This document shows positions 11,730 through 42,890 of a DNA stretch of 42,988 bases, one piece after another. Source of the stretch: a virus (lineage: Duplodnaviria > Heunggongvirae > Uroviricota > Caudoviricetes); IMG/VR virus record IMGVR_UViG_3300045988_149348. The stretch is one strand, 5' to 3'. Numbering within the stretch: position 1 is the stretch's first letter; each line of letters starts with the position of its first letter. The notes beneath the pieces were generated by a model, which was given only the letters and a program-made list of their open reading frames with translations, was not told the DNA's origin and did not search any database. Made by a program: the position numbers and the translations under genes.

Positions 11730-12070
11730 ATCGGCATTCCTCTGTTAGTATTAACAGTGAGAGTTATTTCCAATACACCAACATTATCTGATACTTCATC
11801 AACAATATAATTTTTACCGTTGATTTTCATTGACTGGTCTTTGACAGGGAGAACAGGAAAATCTTTTCTTGAAACAAATAATATTATTTGCCCCTGATTT
11901 ATTCCCTCTGCAAACTCAGCATATGAGCGTTTATTACGCTCATGAATAAGGTCTGTATCAATAACGGCAAGGATATCCTTGCCGTCTATGTTATATGTAT
12001 CGGCAAACTCTTTTTCATTGAGGAATATTGCAGAAATATCTTGCGCTATAACCTCTTTGAAGGAGTTCAT
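11726..12070 (-). CDS. hypothetical virion protein (possible head-tail connector)
   Basis: 114-aa ORF, coupled overlaps with neighbours. Confidence 0.35.
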   Translation of the reverse strand: MNSFKEVIAQDISAIFLNEKEFADTYNIDGKDILAVIDTDLIHERNKRSYAEFAEGINQGQIILFVSRKDFPVLPVKDQSMKINGKNYIVDEVSDNVGVLEITLTVNTNRGMPI

Positions 12071-22475: not shown

Positions 22476-23092
22476 ACCTCCCCAGCCAGCAATGCGGATA
22501 CAAATCCGATATAGCTGCCATTATCATCAACATAACGAGACACCGCGCAGTCAAAACGATCCGCTTCCTCATCCGTTGCCGGGATTTTATGACCTCCAAA
22601 TGACAGGTACTGAACTTTTACGCCTGATTTGGCCTCATCCTTCTCAAATGGGATATCCATACCCTCTGTGTCATCGTAGACCGCCGCACTCAATAAGTTA
22701 TCCAGTTCGCGCTGAGTAAAACCAATTGAGTCCAGAGCAAAATCATCGGCCGCAAGATCTGCAAGCTCCGCGCTTAACAACTCTTCATCCCAACCAGCAT
22801 TCAGCGGAATACGGTTGTCGGCCAGACGATATGCCTTCTTCTGATTCTCCGTTAGCCCTTCCAGAACAATGCAGGGAACGTCATCCATCCCCAACTGAGT
22901 GGCCGCAGCAATTCGACCATGACCAGCAATTACAACGTTGTTCTCGTCTATCAGGATCGGATTAGTCCATCCGTACTCCTGTATGCTGGCAACAATCTGA
23001 TCTACCTGCTCCACGGAGTGTGTGCGAGCGTTCTTTTCATAACCAATCAACACAGAAAGTGGTAAAGAAACCACATTAAGATGTTTTGTCAT
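22469..23092 (-). CDS. ParB/Srx N-terminal domain protein (paralog 2)
   Basis: 207 aa; NARTHSVEQVDQIVASIQEYGWTNPILID...IAGHGRIAAA; shares the C-terminal KIPATD motif with paralog 1. Confidence 0.6.
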   Translation of the reverse strand: MTKHLNVVSLPLSVLIGYEKNARTHSVEQVDQIVASIQEYGWTNPILIDENNVVIAGHGRIAAATQLGMDDVPCIVLEGLTENQKKAYRLADNRIPLNAGWDEELLSAELADLAADDFALDSIGFTQRELDNLLSAAVYDDTEGMDIPFEKDEAKSGVKVQYLSFGGHKIPATDEEADRFDCAVSRYVDDNGSYIGFVSALLAGEVC

Positions 23093-23214
23093 GCCGTTTA
23101 TCCGCTAAAATCCCCTCGCTTGTGCAAGCAAGTGGGCCTCGGTTTGTATCCACGGCACCCTGTGGGTATGAATGACTGTCGTCAGGTCGCAACTGACGGC
23201 GGGTGAGAGTGAAT

Positions 23215-23290
23215 TGGTGGCCCCTACCGGATTTGAACCGATGACCGTGCGATTATGAGTCGCCTGCTCTAACCACTGAGCTAAGGGGCC
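23215..23290 (-). tRNA. tRNA with CAU anticodon (Met or Ile2/lysidine type)
   Basis: 76-nt cloverleaf folded by hand: 7-bp acceptor stem, GCTC/GAGC D stem, anticodon loop CUCAUAA, T loop TTCAAAT, 3' CCA encoded. The 5' 42 nt match E. coli ileX-type tRNA as recalled. Confidence 0.8.
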
Positions 23291-23459
23291 ATATTTGATC
23301 TGTTTGTCTGGTGTGGCGCCGCGCACGAAAATCCCAGCCAATAAATTCAGGATTTTTGGGCGCGGCGGCATATCAGACAAACATGGTTGATGCGTGCGCC
23401 CATGAGAAAAGCGCATAGAATGTTGTAACTATATATTTATATAATTATAGAAATATATA

Positions 23460-30829: not shown

Positions 30830-31341
30830 TGATGGCCCCCGTCATTTCTGGTGCTTTTCACCGTGCGGCTTCTTAAAAACCTGCCATCACGAACAACAGA
30901 CACTTCTCGTTTACCCAACCTCATTTCACGGCGGTAACATTCAGAAAATGCCTCGTCCGGCATCATATAAATGCGACGCTTCGCCTCCGTATCCAGAAGG
31001 GAACGGCTTGGGGTTACATATAAAAACGACTCATCAATAGGGACAAAACCACGAGCAAGAATTGCTGGCAGAATGCCAGGAAGAACGCAGAAAACAGCTC
31101 CACGATGCAGCAACATCTGGTACTCCATGACCTCCGTTATCCCCGTGACTACTGTTACGGTGTCACGTCTGTTACGGCTGGCAACCAGTCGCTGCACACG
31201 TCCAATTTTCTGATCTACAGATAGATGTTTGCTATCGTTATCAATATGATCGATAACAAATCCTTTAATCGTTTGATCAAGGTAGTGCACCACCTTCGAT
31301 TGAATCTGGTGATTATCACCAAAGAAGGCCAGAATCATCAT
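30826..31341 (-). CDS. hypothetical protein
   Basis: 171-aa ORF in the early operon. Confidence 0.4.
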   Translation of the reverse strand: MMILAFFGDNHQIQSKVVHYLDQTIKGFVIDHIDNDSKHLSVDQKIGRVQRLVASRNRRDTVTVVTGITEVMEYQMLLHRGAVFCVLPGILPAILARGFVPIDESFLYVTPSRSLLDTEAKRRIYMMPDEAFSECYRREMRLGKREVSVVRDGRFLRSRTVKSTRNDGGHQ

Positions 31342-31832
31342 TCCTCAAGCCTCCCGAGTGCTGAACGCCGGGCGTTGCTAATCTCCTTATGAATCAGCTC
31401 GATATCGCTGGAATCTTTATTCTTAAACTCCAGCATGGCAATCGCATCACGAACCTCTGAAACGGTTACGTGTGAGTGTTTCCAGCGAGCAATGAATCGC
31501 GGACCGCGTAGATTGCAACGCTCCGCAGGCATCCCCAGCTCAGAGAAAACCGCTTTCAGCCTTGATAAGCAGTTAACAGGGAGATTCCCTTTGATCTTGT
31601 TCTGCCGAACCGATGTGCCATCGCTACGCTGGCGCTGACGTTCGGCAAAATCTGCCGCCCATTGCTGGACGTTAATCCGGCCTTCCGAATACGCCACCAG
31701 CAGCGTCAGGTTATCCGCACGAGGGAATCTCTCGAAGCGATACCAGGCACCAATCAGTGATGACGTAAAGCCAAACTTTCTGGCAACACCAATTTGGCCT
31801 CCATTTTCGTCAACCCACTCCTGAAAGGTCAT
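31338..31832 (-). CDS. Cro/YdaS-like DNA-binding protein with C-terminal extension
   Basis: 164 aa; N-terminal helix-turn-helix QIGVARKFGFTSSLIGAW; first gene leftward of the divergent operator region; GGAG ribosome-binding site. Confidence 0.55.
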   Translation of the reverse strand: MTFQEWVDENGGQIGVARKFGFTSSLIGAWYRFERFPRADNLTLLVAYSEGRINVQQWAADFAERQRQRSDGTSVRQNKIKGNLPVNCLSRLKAVFSELGMPAERCNLRGPRFIARWKHSHVTVSEVRDAIAMLEFKNKDSSDIELIHKEISNARRSALGRLEE

Positions 31833-31850
31833 TTAACGAACTCCAGTTAA

Positions 31851-31865
31851 ACCACGATATGTGGT
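31851..31865. promoter_or_regulatory. operator, ACCAC-N5-GTGGT family (ACCACGATATGTGGT), Cro-side
   Basis: Perfect 15-bp inverted repeat in the cro leader; imperfect neighbour ACCACATATCGTGAG at 31872..31886 falls in the spacer of a TTGAAA-17-TTTAAT promoter on the minus strand. Confidence 0.6.
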
Positions 31866-31953
31866 ATTAAAACCACATATCGTGAGTTTTTCAATGGGCG
31901 AAACAAAAAATAACCTTCTATTTGTGGTCCACCTCTCGTCTTACCATGTGAAA

Positions 31954-31968
31954 ACCACTAAATGTGGT
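31954..31968. promoter_or_regulatory. operator, ACCAC-N5-GTGGT family (ACCACTAAATGTGGT), repressor-side
   Basis: Perfect inverted repeat just upstream of a TATAAA -10-like hexamer (31973..31978) and the CI-like gene start. Confidence 0.6.
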
Positions 31969-32005
31969 AATGTATAAATAACCCACCATTCACGATTGAT
32001 GAGAC

Positions 32006-32662
32006 ATGAAAAGCAACGACGAGAACATCAAGAAAGAAATAGGTCTGCGCATTCAGACTCTACGGAAACAATCCGGCATGACTGCCGGAGATCTCCAGCA
32101 AGTCACTGGAATAGGCTTAAGCACCTTGCAGAACTATGAGGCCGGATTAAGACAACCATCTATACCTGCCATCAAGAAAATCGCGCACGCCCTGAAAGCA
32201 TCAGCGCCTTATATCGCGTGCTTAACAGATAACCCGTTCCCACCCCAGAATACTAACGCTCCTGTTATTCCTGGGCTTGTAGCTATAAAAAATGACATAG
32301 CATCGCACGCCGGAGAAAAGCCAGTGCTGGCGATAGAACAGGAGATTCTACGAAGCAAGAACATCAACCCATCGTCTCTGTCAGTTCTCCAGAGCAACGA
32401 TGAGTTAATGTCACCAACAATATCCCCTGGCTCCCAAGTCCTGATTAATACAGACGATACAGAGATTCATGAGGGGATCTATGCCCTTGAAGACAGAAAT
32501 GGCCTGGTTGTTTTGAGGCACTGTAGAGTCATACCGGGTGACAATGCTGTTATGCTGTCAACCGAAAGGGATGCTGAAATGAACACTAAGCATCTGAATA
32601 ACGAGGAATTTAAGCGTTATAAAGTTCTTGGCCGCGTAGTTAGTGTTGTCAACTGGTTATGA
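32006..32662 (+). CDS. CI-like repressor (HTH_XRE N-domain + LexA/S24-like C-domain)
   Basis: 218 aa; N-terminal helix-turn-helix (LQQVTGIGLSTLQNYEAG); C-terminal ELMSPTISPGSQVLIN aligns by eye with the S24 GDSMxPxIxxGDxVLVD motif. Confidence 0.7.
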   Translation: MKSNDENIKKEIGLRIQTLRKQSGMTAGDLQQVTGIGLSTLQNYEAGLRQPSIPAIKKIAHALKASAPYIACLTDNPFPPQNTNAPVIPGLVAIKNDIASHAGEKPVLAIEQEILRSKNINPSSLSVLQSNDELMSPTISPGSQVLINTDDTEIHEGIYALEDRNGLVVLRHCRVIPGDNAVMLSTERDAEMNTKHLNNEEFKRYKVLGRVVSVVNWL

Positions 32663-32704
32663 TACACAGCACGGCGAAAGCCGTGCATTTCTACGCTCAA
32701 AAAA

Positions 32705-32719
32705 ACCACATTTTGTGGT
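32705..32719. promoter_or_regulatory. operator, ACCAC-N5-GTGGT family (ACCACATTTTGTGGT)
   Basis: Perfect inverted repeat between the CI-like gene and 32755..33129, followed by TTGACA. Confidence 0.55.
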
Positions 32720-32754
32720 TTTGACAACATGTAAAAGTATAAAAGAGGCTACGC

Positions 32755-33129
32755 ATGGAATTACATACAGCCAATAAAAATGAAACTCTGATCACTGCTG
32801 GAATCGAAATCCAAGCGTTGAACATAGCGATTGAGTGTATGTTATGCCAAATCATTGATAATGAGAAAGATATCGACTGGATAGAATCTATCCTTCATCT
32901 GGCATCAGAACAAAAAGTCTGCCTCAAAACGGCCTTGCAATACGATGTGCCAGCGGTATCGAAGCTGTGCCAGCCATTGATGGCATATAACAGGGCTATT
33001 ATTTCTGTATGCCTCATGATTCTTGATGAAAACACCCCTCTTAGCGACCGCTCAGAAGCTGCTCTAACCCTCTCACGTAAACAGCGACATCTAGCAAATC
33101 AACTGATATCAACGATAGCTGACCTCTGA
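32755..33129 (+). CDS. hypothetical protein downstream of the repressor gene
   Basis: 124-aa ORF with its own operator copy upstream. Confidence 0.45.
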   Translation: MELHTANKNETLITAGIEIQALNIAIECMLCQIIDNEKDIDWIESILHLASEQKVCLKTALQYDVPAVSKLCQPLMAYNRAIISVCLMILDENTPLSDRSEAALTLSRKQRHLANQLISTIADL

Positions 33130-33264
33130 CTGCAAGCGGGCTAACGCCCGCTTATATGATTATAGATTTATATAATTATATAAAACGCTTTCCATCCGCC
33201 AAAAAGTTGGTTATGCTTACCTCGTTCTATAAATATAGATTTATAGAATTATATAACCAAACAC

Positions 33265-33933
33265 ATGGAGTCTCGACAAATGACTATCTCTGTAGGTATT
33301 TTCAACGGAAAAGGCGGCGTAACCAAATCAACAATTGCCCGTGCTTTAGCAGTTGCTTATGCAAAGGCTGGCTGGAATGTATGCCTGATCGATATGGATG
33401 TGCTTAACGGAACGGTAACGCGTTGGGTACAACGCAGAATGGCCAACAATATCGAACCAGCAATCGCGGCGCAGCCGTGCGGCACACCATCACAAGTCCA
33501 GAAAATCATCGAATCAGAAGTATACGACCTGGTTATCGTTGATGGCGGTGCCTACGCATCTGAATCAGTACCGAAGCTATCTGAATTTCTGGATATGGTT
33601 ATTTTGCCAACCCGATTCTCTACCGATGACCTGGAAACCACCGTTAACACTGCTCACGGCATCGTTAAAAAGGGTGTGCCAATCAAGAAAATTTGCATGG
33701 TGTTTTCCGGCGCGGCTGAAAATGAAGCTGACTATATTGAAGCCCAAGAGTACCTGGCTAATACGCCATACTTTGTTGTCGATAAGTACATTCCCCACAA
33801 GCCAGCTCTGAGCAAAGCTCAGGATAAGGGCTTAAGCCTCATTGAATGCTCATACGTTGCGCCACGCAAAAAGGCAGACGACGTTATTCAGGGGATTATC
33901 AACCAGCTTGAGGCTCTGACTACTGCCGCGTAA
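33265..33933 (+). CDS. ParA-family partition ATPase (small, type Ib-like)
   Basis: 222 aa; deviant Walker A GKGGVTKST near the N-terminus; followed by a small ribbon-helix-helix-like gene; AT-rich repeats upstream. Confidence 0.7.
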   Translation: MESRQMTISVGIFNGKGGVTKSTIARALAVAYAKAGWNVCLIDMDVLNGTVTRWVQRRMANNIEPAIAAQPCGTPSQVQKIIESEVYDLVIVDGGAYASESVPKLSEFLDMVILPTRFSTDDLETTVNTAHGIVKKGVPIKKICMVFSGAAENEADYIEAQEYLANTPYFVVDKYIPHKPALSKAQDKGLSLIECSYVAPRKKADDVIQGIINQLEALTTAA

Positions 33934-33976
33934 TATATAATTATAGTTTTATAGATTTATATAAGAGGGGATACAC

Positions 33977-34446: not shown

Positions 34447-34469
34447 TAAAAAAGGCCCCCGAAGGGGCC
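34447..34469 (-). terminator. rho-independent terminator (minus-strand orientation)
   Basis: GGCCCC-CGAA-GGGGCC hairpin with an A-run on the plus side, giving a U-run on the minus strand after the small peptide ORF. Confidence 0.55.
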
Positions 34470-34475
34470 TAATCG

Positions 34476-34598
34476 CTACTTGCTGCTAATGTTTATCGTC
34501 ACATTCAGAGCGTTATCAGTAATCTTCCAACCCTCCCCATGTGGCGTAAACAAAGCTCCAGTAACAACGATAAAAATACACATGTAGTATTTTTTCAT
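34476..34598 (-). CDS. small hydrophobic peptide (40 aa), candidate membrane peptide
   Basis: MKKYYMCIFIVVTGALF...; AAGGG 8 nt upstream of ATG 34598; own terminator downstream. Low confidence. Confidence 0.3.
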   Translation of the reverse strand: MKKYYMCIFIVVTGALFTPHGEGWKITDNALNVTINISSK

Positions 34599-34976
34599 TG
34601 TGTGGCCCTTACAGGCCGTTTCACGGCATCCCCACCGACGAAAATGACGCGAGAGCAAGCACGCTGTTTGTGCCTGCGTGGTACGGCAAGTGGATAATCC
34701 TTTCCTGAAAGTCGGTGCCCGGTTGCGAATCGGCGAAAAGGCCCCGCGTAATGTTACACCGCAGCCCCTTCATAATGAAGGGATAAAAATGTATTGTTTT
34801 TCATTAGGTTAAATACACACCACAAAAATCACTCGCTTTTGTGCTCTAATAAACCAAATTTATTTGGACAATTTTATTCAGTTGGGTAAGAATATGGTTG
34901 CTGTTTGTGCTTGCGTGGTTGTATTTATACAACAACGTAATGCTGAAAGGACCGCGAATCCGATCAGCACGAAAGA

Positions 34977-35002
34977 ACCGTCCTCAAAAGGACGGTTTTT
35001 TT
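34977..35002 (+). terminator. rho-independent terminator (plus strand)
   Basis: ACCGTCC-TCAAAA-GGACGGT followed by TTTTTT; overlaps the 3' end of the minus-strand gene 34984..35556. Confidence 0.6.
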
Positions 35003-35556
35003 GTTTCTCCCCCTTCCTTCCCAAATGATTCAAATGTTAATGAGAGTGAATCATTTGATATGTTCGATTTAGCGCCGTTATCGACCCAATTTCTGTATGC
35101 TTCATCACAACAGTACCTTACAGCAGTTGGAGTAACAGGGATGCCGCCCCCAAATGAGAATCCCATTGAGCTAATGCTAACTCTTTCGAATGGCCTATTT
35201 CTCAATGCTTCAAACCCCTTGCTATTAAAGTAACGCAGCATCAGAGGTAAAAGGTTATCCTCGTCCTGACTGATTGTTCCAGGGAAAAAGTAGTAACCAT
35301 AACGGTTAAATTCGGGAATAAGAATTTCTACCAATGACATGAAATTCACTGGAGTAATATTAAGGGCTGTGAAAGCACCAAAAAGGGCGTCAACTGTTAA
35401 TACAGACTGCCCGTTCTCTATCTTTGTCCATGCGTTTGGTGTTTTTCCAGCAGCTTGAGCCAGCACTCCTTGATGCACACCTCTTTCTAGCCTAAGTTCT
35501 TTTATGATCATTAGGTGAATTGTTGAAAAACATGAGTTTTTTGACTGTTCAATCAT
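34984..35556 (-). CDS. HTH_XRE-family DNA-binding protein with uncharacterised C-terminal domain
   Basis: 190 aa; helix-turn-helix VLAQAAGKTPNAWTKIENGQSVLTVD; GGGGA ribosome-binding site 6 nt upstream of ATG 35556. Confidence 0.55.
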   Translation of the reverse strand: MIEQSKNSCFSTIHLMIIKELRLERGVHQGVLAQAAGKTPNAWTKIENGQSVLTVDALFGAFTALNITPVNFMSLVEILIPEFNRYGYYFFPGTISQDEDNLLPLMLRYFNSKGFEALRNRPFERVSISSMGFSFGGGIPVTPTAVRYCCDEAYRNWVDNGAKSNISNDSLSLTFESFGKEGGETKKPSF

Positions 35557-35692: not shown

Positions 35693-35707
35693 CCCACACT
35701 ATGTGGT
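35693..35707. promoter_or_regulatory. operator, ACCAC-N5-GTGGT family (CCCACACTATGTGGT, one mismatch)
   Basis: Immediately upstream of an extended -10-like TGTTAAAAT (35711..35719) that precedes the candidate small-RNA region. Confidence 0.5.
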
Positions 35708-35737
35708 TTAGTCTGTTAAAATCCCTCTGTATTGACA

Positions 35738-35839
35738 TAAATGCGCCATTGGTGGACACTTTCCGAGCCGTAGCAAAATCTACGGTCGGGATTGGAACCC
35801 CGTAGACACAATGGCGCATACCGCGTTAGCGGTTTTTTT
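35738..35839 (+). ncRNA. candidate c4-like antisense regulatory RNA with intrinsic terminator
   Basis: Structured ~100-nt region: GCGCCATTG...CAATGGCGC long-range stem, CCGTAG/CTACGG inner stem, then ACCGC-GTTA-GCGGT plus UUUUUUU terminator (35820..35839). 35789..35817 is complementary in two blocks (CATTGTGTC, GTTCCAA) to 35917..35941 in the downstream leader. Confidence 0.5.
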
Positions 35840-36005
35840 ATGCGTAAAGCACTGCTACACCCAAATTATGGTGGGGCGTGCGGGGGAGTCGTAAGACTCG
35901 CCGGTTCGTCATTGTGTCCGGTAGTTCCAACCCTGCACGTCTCACCACCCAATGATTGGAACCTGACGGTGGTGAGTATCCTTAACCTTTAAGGGAATCA
36001 TCACA

Positions 36006-36197
36006 ATGACAAACCTACCCCATGACTATTACGTCAACCTCGTAAAGATCCTTCTCAAGAAAGCCTCATACGCCGATAAAGTCCGCCTGGCTGAAATCAT
36101 CGAGCGCGAAGCTATGCGCATCGCCAGCAACGATAACGCTGTTTCTGACGCAAAAATCTCCCTCGTAACCAAAGTAGTTATGGGAGGTGCAAAATGA
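36006..36197 (+). CDS. icd-like small ORF, translationally coupled to the antirepressor gene
   Basis: 63-aa ORF whose TGA stop overlaps the ATG of the next gene (ATGA); AAGGG ribosome-binding site lies in a CCTTAA/TTAAGG hairpin. Confidence 0.5.
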   Translation: MTNLPHDYYVNLVKILLKKASYADKVRLAEIIEREAMRIASNDNAVSDAKISLVTKVVMGGAK

Positions 36198-37375
36198 AAA
36201 CGCTTCCGATCGTTAACACCCTACAGCCTATCCTGCATAACCAGATCCCCGTTATCACTACTGAACTACTGGCAAAGCTATACGGCACAGACGTTGATAA
36301 CATCAAAAAAAATTACTCACGTAACGCAACCCGCTTTATTGAAGGAAAGCATTTTTTCAAAGTGGCTGGCGATGAGTTAAAAACTTTGCGAGTGACTTTA
36401 AGTCACTCACAAAATTTGCGACTAGTTTTAAACGAGTCACAAAATGAAGTGCAAATTTCCCCCAAGACTCGCTCTCTCATCCTCTGGACAGAACGCGGGG
36501 CTGCACGTCATGCCAAAATGCTTGAAACTAACCAAGCGTGGGATGTATTCGAACGGCTGGAAGACTGCTATTTCAGCCAGAACGCGCAAACGGCCGCGAC
36601 CGTAACCGTCTCGCCAAACAATGCTCGTGAGGTTGTCGATACGCTCAACGCCAAACCGATGTTTTACATTAAAGTGTGCAACAACGAGCCACTCACAACC
36701 TCAGCCGATGTTGCCCAGGCATTCAGCACCACAAACAATTCCATCGTTATGGCCATCGATGCGCTACGCATTCCTCGCACGGCTGCGGCGCGTCACTTCT
36801 TTAAAGAGCAACGACCGTTGGAAGGAAGCGACCGCGAAATAACAATCTATCGCATGACAAAAGACGGATTTACCTTGCTCATGGAGAGCATCGACGGTCC
36901 AGGCGTGAAAGATATCAAGCTGGCCTACATTGAAGCCTTTAACGCTATCAGCAGCGTGTTAAAAACACAGTACGAGCGTGATCTGGCTAAACGACTGTAC
37001 CAGGAAAAAACGATTATCCGCGCGGCAACAGAGCATAATCGGCTATTAACGGAACCGAACTACAGGAAGGAACTAATCAAGGAGTTTGACAAGGCAACAG
37101 GGAAAACCAAAGCGGCGCTAAATCTGCCAGCAATGACTCAGGAAAATGTGATATCAGCCTTACTTCTTGATCTGCTCAGAAACGCCAGAGCACTTATCAG
37201 CTTTGACGAAAACCTGAATCCTCAGCTCAAGCTACTACCACCGACAGGCAAAGTAGTCGACCAGGCTGATCACAACAGCATACTCAGCGTACTGGATGCA
37301 AACCTGCCAGCCAGGACACTACAGGATCTGATAAAAACATGTGCTGATAAGCTGGCACAGAAAAGCAGACCATAA
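36194..37375 (+). CDS. antirepressor-like protein (ORF6N/KilA-N-like N-domain + Rha-like domain)
   Basis: 393 aa; N-terminal ITTELLAKLYGTDVDNIKKNYSRNATRF (ORF6N-like) and central PLTTSADVAQAFSTTNNSIVMAIDAL (Rha-like), as recalled; GGGAGG ribosome-binding site. Confidence 0.6.
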   Translation: MKTLPIVNTLQPILHNQIPVITTELLAKLYGTDVDNIKKNYSRNATRFIEGKHFFKVAGDELKTLRVTLSHSQNLRLVLNESQNEVQISPKTRSLILWTERGAARHAKMLETNQAWDVFERLEDCYFSQNAQTAATVTVSPNNAREVVDTLNAKPMFYIKVCNNEPLTTSADVAQAFSTTNNSIVMAIDALRIPRTAAARHFFKEQRPLEGSDREITIYRMTKDGFTLLMESIDGPGVKDIKLAYIEAFNAISSVLKTQYERDLAKRLYQEKTIIRAATEHNRLLTEPNYRKELIKEFDKATGKTKAALNLPAMTQENVISALLLDLLRNARALISFDENLNPQLKLLPPTGKVVDQADHNSILSVLDANLPARTLQDLIKTCADKLAQKSRP

Positions 37376-39065: not shown

Positions 39066-39365
39066 TCAGATGTTAAACGCTATTCGTTTTCCTGTGGGAA
39101 GCTCAACATCCAGGCTTAATTTGCCTCCCATAGCTTCAACGTAACGCTTTAATGTCGCCAGCTTTAAATCATTTCCGCGCTGCTCCAGCTTTGTTACTGC
39201 TGGCTGGCTTATACCCATCGCCTCAGCAACCTGTTTTTGTGATAACTGGAGTTCTTCACGCATCATCTGCAAGCCGACCTCAAGAATCATCTCATCTGCC
39301 ATTTCTTTAATTCGCGCCTGGCTTTCAGGTGAACGGCTGGCAATCACCTCATCTAATGTTCTCAT
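39066..39365 (-). CDS. HigA-like antitoxin (HTH_XRE)
   Basis: 99 aa; helix-turn-helix LSQKQVAEAMGISQPAVTKLEQ; start overlaps the stop of the upstream toxin-like gene. Confidence 0.6.
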   Translation of the reverse strand: MRTLDEVIASRSPESQARIKEMADEMILEVGLQMMREELQLSQKQVAEAMGISQPAVTKLEQRGNDLKLATLKRYVEAMGGKLSLDVELPTGKRIAFNI

Positions 39366-39718
39366 TACTTGCTCTCCAGTGTGTTCAGATGTGCTGCAAA
39401 CTCATCCTCAGCTATACGCACCAGTTTTTTATAAAACCGCTTATCGTTACTTTTGTCTCCTGCACAAAGAACGATAGCCCGGCGAATCGGATCGAACGCA
39501 TAAAAGGCTCTTATCGGACGGCCAGAAAACTGAACGCGAAGCTCTTTCATATTTTTGTACCGAGAACCTTTTACGGTATCGGCATATGGCCTGGGTAACT
39601 CAGGTCCGTAAACCTGTAGATTTTTCAAATCAGCCAAAACCTTTTCCTGAAGAGCGTCTTCTTGCTCATTTAGCCAGTCGTCAAATCGCTGGCTAAAAAG
39701 TACCGTCCACATGATCAA
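39365..39718 (-). CDS. HigB/RelE-family (Gp49-like) addiction-module toxin
   Basis: 117 aa; W.V.F...F..WL...GS....MKELR...YRA.Y......IVL..G.K pattern as recalled for the killer-protein family; toxin-first order. Confidence 0.6.
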   Translation of the reverse strand: MIMWTVLFSQRFDDWLNEQEDALQEKVLADLKNLQVYGPELPRPYADTVKGSRYKNMKELRVQFSGRPIRAFYAFDPIRRAIVLCAGDKSNDKRFYKKLVRIAEDEFAAHLNTLESK

Positions 39719-41174: not shown

Positions 41175-42023
41175 TTAATGTTGGAGTGATTTCCAGGTCT
41201 TTCTTAACCTGTTATAACGCTGCTCAACGAGGGATCGTAAATATGCAAGGTCAGCACCTGGATACATGCCATCAGCAAATTCCTGACTAACCTCTCTAGT
41301 GATTTGATGACGAAGTTCGGCCTCTCCCTTTTCCTGAACAAGACGCGCAGCTCTCTCCGCTGCTTTCTGTTTTGCCTTTATCTCTCTGGCCGTCTTCCTC
41401 TGACGCCATACATTCTCCATCTGCTCCTGAATAACAATACGCTTATAATCAGCCTCCGTTATCGCTTTTTTAAGCCGTTCGCTATTCTTCGCATTGAAGT
41501 AATTAAGTTTCTGGCTAACCGCACGTCTCCATGCTTGTTCAGTAATACCAACGGTTTCCAGCAGTTGATCACGAATCTCTATTTTCGCTGGCCAATACTG
41601 TTTATTCACCCGATCCCAGCGACGTTCATAATCAATAAAACCTAACGCTTTCAGTTGCGACAACGCCCTTGTACAGCGCGTTATAGACTTGTTCCCAGCT
41701 TCGGATACGGTAGACAGGCCGCAAAAATCAGCCAACGCCTCAGCACTAGCCAGAACCCGCTTAGAAATGATGTTTACATGGTGCAAAATCGCAGCGATCA
41801 CAGCATTAATCGCCCGACGACGATGCTCGTTTATCCGGCGCTTCCGCTCTGACGGTTGATTAACGTAGAACGCAACCTCACACGTAAGATCACGCCCATT
41901 AATGCGCTGTAAAGCATCAGATAACACCAGCGGCAGCTTGTGCGTATGGTGCTTTGGAGGCTGGAACTCCGGCGACAAATTACAAACGTAAGCTGAACGT
42001 AGAGACGGCATTGGTCTATCCAT
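41175..42023 (-). CDS. repA: plasmid replication initiator RepA, IncFII RepA1-like
   Basis: 283 aa from ATG 42023; CGLSTVSEAGNKSITRCTRALSQLKALGFIDYERRWD matches the RepA1 core motif as recalled. The ORF track's longer form (to 42185) starts at a TTG. Confidence 0.75.
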   Translation of the reverse strand: MDRPMPSLRSAYVCNLSPEFQPPKHHTHKLPLVLSDALQRINGRDLTCEVAFYVNQPSERKRRINEHRRRAINAVIAAILHHVNIISKRVLASAEALADFCGLSTVSEAGNKSITRCTRALSQLKALGFIDYERRWDRVNKQYWPAKIEIRDQLLETVGITEQAWRRAVSQKLNYFNAKNSERLKKAITEADYKRIVIQEQMENVWRQRKTAREIKAKQKAAERAARLVQEKGEAELRHQITREVSQEFADGMYPGADLAYLRSLVEQRYNRLRKTWKSLQH

Positions 42024-42067
42024 ATGTTCGCTCTTGCGTCCACGGAAAACCAACGTATAATGGGAGT

Positions 42068-42148
42068 TGTCGATGCGCCCATGGATATTGTTGTTGGTTT
42101 TCCGTGGATGTCGCAAGAAGCCCGCAGATTTATCTGCGGGCTTTTTGT
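42068..42148 (+). ncRNA. candidate CopA-like antisense RNA (countertranscript to the repA leader)
   Basis: Plus-strand promoter TTGCGT-16-TATAAT (-10 at 42056..42061); stem-loop CCAUGGA/UCCGUGG; terminator GCCCGCAGA-TTTA-TCTGCGGGC plus TTTTT (42120..42146); lies 45-125 nt upstream of repA on the opposite strand. Confidence 0.55.
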
Positions 42149-42190
42149 TTCCATATCTGGTCACTTTCCAACCAGACACCCACAATCATA

Positions 42191-42205
42191 ACCACGTTAC
42201 GTGGT
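42191..42205. promoter_or_regulatory. operator, ACCAC-N5-GTGGT family (ACCACGTTACGTGGT), upstream of repA
   Basis: Perfect 15-bp inverted repeat in the spacer of a putative minus-strand promoter with -10 TATGAT. Confidence 0.55.
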
Positions 42206-42335
42206 TTTAAGAGAACTCTACCACAACACTTTCGGTCATGCACGAAGTCTCTCACTGATCGAACGATAATCCACCAGTAAAAGGATCTAAATTGGATCTC
42301 GTTTTGCGAGCATCATACTACTGGCCTAACTCCAG

Positions 42336-42890
42336 TCAATGATTCCCAGCCGGAAACCTGCGGTAAAGCGTGGATAAGGTAACATCGAAGATAATCGCTA
42401 TCCGCTTACGTGAAACACCATTCGCAATAAGCCTTCCGATCTGTTCCCATTGCTCTGGTGCCAATTTTGAGCGGCGTCCTCCTATCCTGCCGTTAGCCCT
42501 TGCCACCGCCAATCCTGCACGCGTTCTTTCAATCATATTTTCCCGCTCCATCTCTGCGACTGCACTCAGCATCGTGTAGGCAAAGCGGCCAATTGAAGTG
42601 CTAATTTTTATCCCTTCCGTAATCGAAATAAACTCAATGTTGTTTGATAAAAAATAGTTAAGTAAATCAACAAGATGAATCAGAGAACGCCCCATTCGGT
42701 CCAGCTTCCAGACAATAACCGTATCGCCCGGCCGTAACACCTTCAGTAGCTTATCAAGTCCTGGTCGTTTTGATTTAGCACCGGATATTTTATCTTCAAA
42801 AATCCGGTCACATCCTGAACTCCTGAGCGCTTCCAGTTGTAATTCCAAATTCTGGTCAAAAGTTGACACCCTCGCATAACCATATTGCAT
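42336..42890 (-). CDS. serine recombinase, Gin/Hin/Cin-family DNA invertase
   Basis: 184 aa; YARVSTFDQNLELQ catalytic-serine motif, VWKLDRMGRS, C-terminal GRIGGRR...LSTLYRRFPA helix-turn-helix; closely parallels Gin as recalled; gix-like site about 65 bp upstream. Confidence 0.8.
   Translation of the reverse strand: MQYGYARVSTFDQNLELQLEALRSSGCDRIFEDKISGAKSKRPGLDKLLKVLRPGDTVIVWKLDRMGRSLIHLVDLLNYFLSNNIEFISITEGIKISTSIGRFAYTMLSAVAEMERENMIERTRAGLAVARANGRIGGRRSKLAPEQWEQIGRLIANGVSRKRIAIIFDVTLSTLYRRFPAGNH

Follow-up and report, generated by a model that had tools for sequence, protein, structure and literature searches.

The stretch of DNA analyzed here (the window, 42,988 nucleotides, IMG/VR record IMGVR_UViG_3300045988_149348) is most of a ~48-kb myovirus phage-plasmid, and it carries six palindromes of the form ACCAC-N5-GTGGT. 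Three of them lie between the divergent genes for a CI-like repressor and a protein in the Cro position (31833 to 32005); the others lie upstream of orf124, a gene close to cI, upstream of an isrK-c4-icd-ant anti-repressor module, and upstream of the plasmid initiator gene repA. We consider it likely that the six palindromes are operators of the CI-like repressor (32006 to 32662), and probably of the Cro-position protein as well. An earlier note on this DNA, made from its letters, had proposed that one repressor coordinates lytic genes, anti-repressor expression, and replication, as in P1 or N15. Following up that proposal, we computed the sites, their non-random number, and their conservation at orthologous positions, as well as the identities of the genes and RNAs and the absence of a catalytic dyad from the repressor.

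The earlier note had suggested a genome-wide scan for the pattern. An exact scan of the whole window found all four perfect 15-bp copies of ACCACNNNNNGTGGT that the note had listed (31851, 31954, 32705, and 42191), compared with 0.02 expected, and none of 100 dinucleotide shuffles reached four. Of the two additional copies that it had described as one-mismatch variants, 35693 (CCCACACTATGTGGT) was borne out, while 31872 (ACCACATATCGTGAG, with a GTGAG half) has two mismatches among the ten specified positions. The flanks of the sites lengthen the palindrome to AAACCAC-N5-GTGGTTT. A 21-bp weight matrix for which only the sites of four relatives, and none of the window, served as input found exactly these six sites in the window at 25.9 to 31.6 bits. 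The next match scored 14.4 bits, an 11-bit gap, and the matrix maxima in 200 shuffles had a median of 9.8, a 95th percentile of 15.9, and a largest value of 22.2. The 31872 site was the fourth-best match despite its two mismatches. The six sites, with their matrix scores, are as follows.

31851-31865: O1, perfect ACCACGATATGTGGT, 27.7 bits; covers approximately +1 of the leftward early promoter-like element
31872-31886: O2, ACCACATATCGTGAG, 26.3 bits; occupies the 17-nt spacer of the leftward promoter-like element
31954-31968: O3, perfect ACCACTAAATGTGGT, 25.9 bits; 38 nt 5' of the cI start
32705-32719: distal operator, perfect ACCACATTTTGTGGT, 31.6 bits, the best in the window; in the position of lambda OL
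35693-35707: ant-side operator, CCCACACTATGTGGT, one mismatch, 25.9 bits; its center is 67 nt 5' of the isrK 5' end
42191-42205: repA-side operator, perfect ACCACGTTACGTGGT, 30.7 bits; at approximately +1 to +18 of an extended -10 element

In an unbiased count of all spaced palindromes (half-site of 4 to 6, gap of 0 to 12), ACCAC-N5-GTGGT was the top motif that is not TA rich (P = 2.9e-8), and the TA-rich palindromes at the top belong to the repeat arrays that flank parA. Distant relatives with similar composition (L004 and L017 to L020; about 119 kb in all) contained no perfect copy. Chance is excluded as the origin of all six sites. One-mismatch matches also occur inside structural genes, at 1203, 5233, and 23049, with matrix scores within the shuffle range. 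The last of these forms a pair with a match at 23070 (AACACAGAAAGTGGT and ACCACATTAAGATGT; 23049 to 23084), 21 bp apart like O1 and O2. We rejected this pair as seventh and eighth operators because it falls in the first 15 codons of a conserved ParB/Srx-like gene and scores within the shuffle range; it is kept in the Salmonella relatives, where coding constraint explains its conservation.

Next, we compared the sites across lineages. A tblastn search with CI returned plasmids from Salmonella (65% identity) and one from Serratia (33%), a search of IMG/VR returned further contigs with CI identities of 62 to 65% and 29 to 32%, and Citrobacter amalonaticus and Enterobacter cloacae contigs were retrieved via homologues of orf124 and of the 164-amino-acid Cro-position protein. 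Gene order was the same in all lineages. In the group with CI at 62 to 65%, made up of Salmonella, Yokenella, Citrobacter, and Enterobacter elements, ACCAC-N5-GTGGT with at most one mismatch occurs at O1/O2, at O3, after the cI terminator, and upstream of repA, and O1 itself has orthologous copies in L003, L005, L015, L016, L026, and L028. Half-sites of the orthologous copies differed at 7 of 130 positions and spacers at 32 of 65, a contrast that is inflated by the way the sites were found. In a MAFFT alignment of the switch interval from seven lineages, most invariant columns fell on the AACCAC halves of O1, O2, and O3; the AACCAC left half of O2 was invariant in all seven, and both halves of O3 were nearly so.

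The more distant group, with CI at ~30%, carries switch operators that are AACYACA-N4-G.G variants, for example GACTACAAAATGTGTTA. After the TGnTAGAGT element 5' of repA, these lineages have GACCCCGAAATGTGGTTT (L004), GCTCCCAATTTGTGGTTT (L017), and GACTACAAAACGTAGCA (L018/19), each of which resembles the switch operators of its own lineage. This parallel change of the repA-side site and the switch operators is the best argument for a single protein reading the two places. The comparison was one on which a shared regulon could have failed, and it came out in favor, with the distant repA sites following the operator variant of their lineage. Together with orthologous sites in five further lineages, this outcome supports the predicted control of lytic genes, anti-repressor, and replication by one repressor.

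The switch interval (173 bp) is the exact gap between two divergent genes, and its layout, with three related palindromes, is kept in seven lineages.

31338-31832, minus strand: first gene of the leftward operon (Cro position), 164 amino acids, with a Cro/YdaS-type N-terminal region of ~70 amino acids and a distinct C-terminal domain
31866-31894, minus strand: leftward early promoter-like element, read by hand; TTGAAA (31894-31889), 17 nt, TTTAAT (31871-31866)
32006-32662, plus strand: CI-like repressor, 218 amino acids, with an HTH_3 N-terminal domain and a degenerate S24-like C-terminal domain

The centers of O1 and O2 are 21 bp apart, a distance retained in the ACCAC-type lineages L003, L005, L015, L016, L026, and L028. 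The -35 element of the early promoter, TTGAxA, is conserved in the alignment, and distant lineages carry better -10 hexamers at the same place. O3 is a probable candidate for an autoregulation site or a Cro site, and the cI promoter could not be fixed from the sequence. Between O2 and O3, ~40 bp from each, a block at 31913 to 31929 (ACCTTCTATTTGTGGT(T/C)) contains one good GTGGT half-site and is conserved in the ACCAC-type lineages L003, L005, L016, L026, and L028; possibly this block is a fourth, weak site of the switch or belongs to the promoter region of cI. The spacers of O1 and O2 are mutually complementary, so that 31853 to 31884 can form, on the plus strand, a hairpin with a 13-bp stem and a T-run that appears terminator-like in a scan. 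We rejected this 36-bp O1-O2 hairpin as a functional terminator, as the complementarity is not retained in L003, L016, L026, and L028; it probably arose incidentally or through conversion of one site by the other.

The identification of the gene at 32006 as CI-like in the earlier note agrees with its matches to Pfam HTH_3 (4.5e-11) and to PHROG_4 "transcriptional repressor" (9.6e-27); Peptidase_S24 scored 18.4 bits, under its cutoff of 23.3. All lineages have an identical CI recognition helix, STLQNYEAG, in keeping with the conserved CCAC core of the operators. Because sequence searches of the PDB with CI and with its C-terminal half gave generic helix-turn-helix matches or nothing, our check of the S24 dyad rested on an alignment with LexA and lambda CI. 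In this alignment, all family members have Leu in place of the catalytic Ser and either Arg or Leu in place of the Lys, and they lack Ala-Gly where cleavage would occur. These replacements suggest that CI is probably not SOS cleavable. A profile search of genome contigs with the CI alignment found no relative, and the LexA box pattern CTGT-N8-ACAG matched the window only at 11742, in structural genes, with none near the ant operon.

The Cro-position protein had zero matches in Pfam (E up to 10) and NCBIfam, and its AlphaFold2 model was poor (predicted local distance difference test [pLDDT] score, 57.5) and unfit for a fold search. In a profile search of 1.8 billion representatives, its N-terminal ~70 amino acids were homologous to free-standing proteins of 70 to 82 amino acids, one of which matches Pfam YdaS_toxin (8e-7) and, weakly, P22_Cro. 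The term "Cro-like" used in the earlier note thus holds only by position and by transitive remote homology, for a protein that has 164 amino acids and an extra domain.

Downstream of cI, the gene order is a hairpin, the 32705 site, orf124, a second hairpin, parA, and a gene for an 82-amino-acid protein (parB82).

32669-32686, plus strand: post-cI hairpin, GCACGGC-GAAA-GCCGTGC; in relatives, a clear intrinsic terminator with a T-run
32755-33129, plus strand: orf124, a predicted four-helix bundle (AlphaFold2 pLDDT, 91.9)

The 32705 site lies centrally in the ~55-bp stretch that separates the cI terminator from the ribosome-binding site of orf124. It is orthologous in all ACCAC-type lineages, and the distant lineages have two tandem variant sites in its place. 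A fold search with orf124 against the PDB and BFVD gave generic matches with E values above 0.01. The orf124 product is only 46 to 59% identical between lineages, compared with 62 to 65% for CI and 93 to 96% for the adjacent ParA, suggesting that this fast-evolving gene belongs to an immunity-specificity module. Arrays of TTATAGAT/TTATATAA with an 8-bp period flank parA (33152 to 33264 and 33933 to 33972) and probably serve a type Ib partition system as its centromere/par operator. A terminator-like hairpin stands between orf124 and parA.

The c4-like RNA/icd/ant region named in the earlier note was recovered as an Rfam C4 match followed by a small open reading frame (ORF) that overlaps an anti-repressor gene with ORF6N and Rha domains.

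35732-35760, plus strand: main isrK/c4 promoter-like element; TTGACA (35732-35737), 17 nt, GACACT (35755-35760)
35767-35839, plus strand: isrK-like RNA (Rfam RF01394, 67.7 bits, above the gathering score)
35864-35952, plus strand: C4 antisense RNA (Rfam RF01695, 77.8 bits against a gathering score of 45)
36006-36197, plus strand: ORF of 63 amino acids in the icd position, placed there by position and not by homology to P1 Icd; overlaps ant by ATGA
36194-37375, plus strand: anti-repressor gene (ant), 393 amino acids; matches PHROG anti-repressor families down to 3.7e-60

The predicted start of the main promoter-like element is the isrK 5' end, and the element is seen in L001, L003, L005, L016, L026, and L028. 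The ant-side operator is found at the identical position, -67, in the Escherichia coli, Yokenella, Citrobacter, and Enterobacter lineages (L001, L016, L026, and L028). A possible extended -10 element of a hypothetical second promoter, TGTTAAAAT (35714 to 35722), would have this operator in its -35 zone.

At the repA side, the plasmid initiator gene of the earlier note is identified as an IncFII-type repA by Pfam and by NCBIfam (RepA_IncFII_LM, 231.5 bits against a cutoff of 70), and no initiator of replication besides its product is annotated in the complete relative L001.

41175-42155, minus strand: repA, IncFII-type initiator; Pfam IncFII_repA (PF02387), 1.1e-43
42036-42150, plus strand: predicted CopA-like countertranscript, a long stem-loop and terminator antisense to the repA leader
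42215-42223, minus strand: extended -10 element TGgTAGAGT, read by hand; 9 nt 5' of the repA-side operator

The extended -10 element is kept as TGnTAGAGT in every lineage, and the operator next to it is orthologous in L003, L005, L015, L026, and L028, with the lineage variants described above in L004, L017, and L018/19. The earlier note had the outlying sites overlapping putative promoters. This could be verified only in part: 42191 adjoins the conserved extended -10 element of a predicted promoter, and for 35693 the overlap is with the hypothetical second promoter only. The plus strand from 42030 to 42160 folds at -68.8 kcal/mol (z score, -8.9), and no Rfam CopA-like family was found in the repA leader even at E values up to 1. 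From hin (stop at 42336) to repA, the minus strand has no ORF of at least 50 amino acids, hence no CopB gene and no room for one. The real start of repA is probably the ATG at 42023, giving 282 amino acids; in relatives (L003 and L026), repA is annotated from an ATG ~130 nt further down, giving 277 amino acids. The longest ORF, with a PGAP-style start at 42155, crosses the countertranscript terminator, and its part upstream of 42023 may be a leader peptide or non-coding. A GGATC repeat pair lies at 42283 to 42299, just downstream of a promoter-like element, with another GATC at 42257 to 42260; every lineage, Serratia among them, has a comparable pair containing GATC, and Dam/SeqA control or a binding site are possibilities.

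From these features we infer which protein binds, where the promoters lie, and in which direction regulation runs. In the plasmid prophage, dimers of CI would bind O2 in the promoter spacer and O1 at the start site and shut off the leftward early promoter; cooperative binding is plausible because the two sites are two helical turns apart. Bound to O3, just 5' of its own gene, CI would limit cI by autoregulation, and bound to 32705, in the position of lambda OL/PL, it would silence orf124. At 35693, CI would damp transcription of isrK-c4-icd-ant in most lineages, on top of the c4 antisense RNA, and at 42191, the start of the repA leader, it would lower transcription of the IncFII-type initiator, on top of the CopA-like countertranscript. 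CI would thereby fill the place that CopB, for which there is neither a gene nor room here, holds in R1-type replicons. Derepression would probably proceed via Ant and not by RecA-stimulated cleavage, because CI lacks the catalytic Ser and Lys, and Ant synthesis would be gated by the c4-type RNA, as in P1 (PMC8546580; PMC8198154). If CI were lost, the early genes would be released at the same time as additional Ant and RepA. Given that RepA is the sole annotated initiator of L001, this would supply extra initiator for lytic replication, as proposed for N15 (PMC4488713). A bolder version, which we put forward tentatively and with some doubt, is that the prophage repressor has replaced CopB as the transcriptional controller of copy number and represses its own anti-repressor, forming, with a catalytically dead S24 domain and no LexA box, a self-locking circuit that is not triggered by the SOS response, with orf124 as an immunity-specific factor such as a CI inactivator or helper.

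Several observations weigh against this assignment of the sites to CI and of CI to these promoters. The promoters were read by hand; the scan tool gives none in 31833 to 32005, and it did not list the early element because its -10 hexamer, TTTAAT, has no -11 A. The orf124 promoter could not be placed, as TTGACA at 32721 has no properly spaced -10. The 35693 site lies clear of the main isrK promoter and is missing from the Salmonella lineage (L003/L005/L015), so CI control of ant is optional and, as far as sequence goes, of either sign. Upstream of the repA operator and of its extended -10 element there is a stronger promoter-like element, TTGACT-16-TATGAT (42339 to 42312, minus strand), so that CI might only block elongation at repA. 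The half-site contrast is inflated, as noted. Literature searches by phage names, plasmid accessions, and topic returned no study of this phage-plasmid family, nor binding or expression work on it. Finally, CI and the Cro-position protein are inseparable as binder by sequence alone.

This last point opens an alternative that we judge unlikely, namely, that the palindromes are bound mainly by the 164-amino-acid protein or that the sites are split between both proteins. In lambda-type switches Cro shares the operators of CI, and the gene for the protein in question lies at the switch; the protein occurs in all lineages as a conserved feature and begins with a region homologous to Cro-sized proteins, one of them matching YdaS/P22_Cro models. 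Repression of repA, ant, and the early promoter, however, suits a lysogenic repressor biologically, and it is the recognition helix of CI that is invariant alongside the conserved operator core. In N15, furthermore, CB binds the repA sites, whereas the Cro of PY54 does not, binding only OR3 (PMC4488713). We find it rather improbable that the sites are CI operators of which some outlying ones do not repress the neighboring gene, with 32705 serving O1 to O3 as a looping partner, as in lambda OL/OR, and 35693 activating or tuning isrK/c4 while Ant is kept off via more antisense RNA. No canonical promoter overlaps either site, 32705 is ~750 to 850 bp away from the switch, and the exact conservation of -67 in four lineages suggests phasing to the main promoter. 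On the other side, the 32705 operator is central between terminator and ribosome-binding site and is replaced by two tandem sites in distant lineages, and L016, L026, and L028 carry, 8 nt after the ant-side site, TGGTAGATT, an extended -10-like element as at repA, which suits repression of a second promoter.

That the palindromes are dispersed ParA/ParB82 centromere sites like the sopC repeats of N15, with promoter proximity incidental, is very improbable. N15 does have centromere sites dispersed over its genome, 32705 lies upstream of the orf124-parA-parB82 block, and the motif is unchanged between lineages whose ParA/ParB82 are 89 to 97% identical. We nevertheless rejected the centromere reading because parA has separate repeat arrays of its own, the usual form of a type Ib centromere/operator; in addition, a terminator-like hairpin separates orf124 from parA, and the control region between the divergent cI and cro genes coincides exactly with three of the sites, phased at 21 bp. 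It is scarcely credible that the outlying copies are chance matches or remnants and that only the cI/cro copies operate. One-mismatch matches do occur in structural genes, but those stay within the shuffle range, whereas the outlying sites score at least as high as O1 to O3 by the matrix, only 0.02 perfect matches are expected per window, and as many as five other lineages keep the outlying sites at orthologous positions while spacers and flanks have diverged. Operators of the CI-like repressor thus remain our preferred identification of the six palindromes.

The assignment of the window to a phage-plasmid follows from its relatives, which are both phages and plasmids. The segment from 31300 to 33200 is 99% identical to the Yersinia pestis phages vB_YpM_39/41/44 (~49 kb) and also to 58 complete non-mobilizable plasmids in PLSDB of ~46 to 52 kb, nearly all from Escherichia. 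The complete relative NZ_CP062206 (L001) is annotated with a myovirus structural module, lysis genes, and an early operon, together with a helix-turn-helix gene, ParA, a Rha-family gene, a HigB/HigA-like pair, RepA, and a Hin-type invertase. The relatives are recorded as circular and contain the myovirus structural module, and the protein clusters of the family exceed 200 members. Pfeifer et al. 2021 curated eight phage-plasmid groups, and the element falls in none of them.

Other features of the window include a cargo insert at 34448 to 35556, between the par genes and isrK, that is not present in L001 and L003. It contains a ryfA-like RNA (RF00126, 136.6 bits; 34448 to 34746, minus strand), a 20-nt repeat of part of that RNA (34900 to 34919), and an HTH_3 gene of 190 amino acids (34984 to 35556, minus strand) with a good promoter-like element, TTGATA-17-TATAGT (35667 to 35639). 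Between the ant locus and repA, 39066 to 39718 holds genes for a RelE/ParE (HigB-like) toxin and a helix-turn-helix antitoxin, according to the annotation of relatives, a further plasmid-maintenance function. A tRNA gene occupies 23218 to 23290 (minus strand; Rfam, 67 bits), annotated as tRNA-Met in the Yersinia phage, and the ORF at 23105 to 23416 is therefore probably spurious.

These elements are frequent in clinical and animal Escherichia, and they lie outside the curated groups. The six-site map amounts to a complete wiring prediction of how the plasmid state couples to becoming phage: it names the probable repressor, the candidate operators, and a likely non-SOS induction route via Ant. 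As a regulon prediction it is solid but will be unsurprising to specialists. The coupling design appears already in N15 and P1; what would be new is its occurrence in an unstudied family with an IncFII-type replicon. It would make a second independent case, besides N15, of a prophage repressor acting on the promoter of a plasmid initiator, and, if true, it suggests that repressor-initiator coupling is a recurrent solution for phage-plasmids. Should the CopB-replacement version also be true, plasmid copy number, lysogeny, and induction would form one circuit whose signal is not the SOS response.

Among known systems, lambda shares with this element the divergent repressor/cro genes with three related palindromes, a two-domain repressor, a further operator past the cI terminator that faces an outward gene, and operators of 15 to 17 bp with a 5-bp spacer; the lambda operator is TATCAC-N5-GTGATA. 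Unlike in lambda, the S24 Ser/Lys are replaced here and the Ala-Gly site is missing, the Cro-position protein has 164 amino acids and an extra domain, the sites outside the switch are single and not triple, and the prophage is a plasmid and not integrated. The Gifsy prophages combine a non-cleavable repressor with an anti-repressor, as this element probably does. Gifsy anti-repressors are LexA controlled, whereas no LexA box was found near the ant operon here. In Gifsy-1, an isrK RNA also lies upstream of an anti-repressor-type gene (PMC4825925). With the IncFII replicons R1 and R100, the repA side shares a PF02387 RepA, a long leader, a strongly folding predicted countertranscript with a terminator, and a putative protein operator at the predicted promoter of the leader, but it has no CopB gene and no Rfam CopA match, and its putative operator has the prophage repressor consensus.

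The closest parallels in mechanism are N15 and P1. Like N15 and phiKO2, the element is a plasmid prophage with a separate anti-repressor locus and, as predicted here, one operator consensus in the repressor/cro interval and at the initiator promoter; in N15, CB binds OR plus two OL sites at the repA promoter (PMC4488713). It differs in having one repA site rather than two, an IncFII-type RepA with a predicted countertranscript rather than the multidomain RepA of N15, and circular relatives with a myovirus module, with no protelomerase annotated in L001. In the phage collection, close homology of CI to the repressors of telomere phages was not detected. With P1 the element shares dispersed, here predicted, operators of the primary repressor and a c4 RNA followed by a small ORF that overlaps ant (PMC8546580; PMC8198154), an operon that is repressed by C1 in P1 (PMC8198154). 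The 22 operators of P1, however, are asymmetric and 17 bp long, compared with six palindromes here; C1 is not HTH_3/S24-like and controls the lytic replicon repL, not the plasmid repA; and in the present element an isrK-like RNA precedes c4 and Ant carries ORF6N and Rha domains. Judged by these comparisons, the element belongs to neither the N15, the P1, nor the lambda family, and it appears to combine a mechanism of the N15/P1 type with a lambda-like switch layout.

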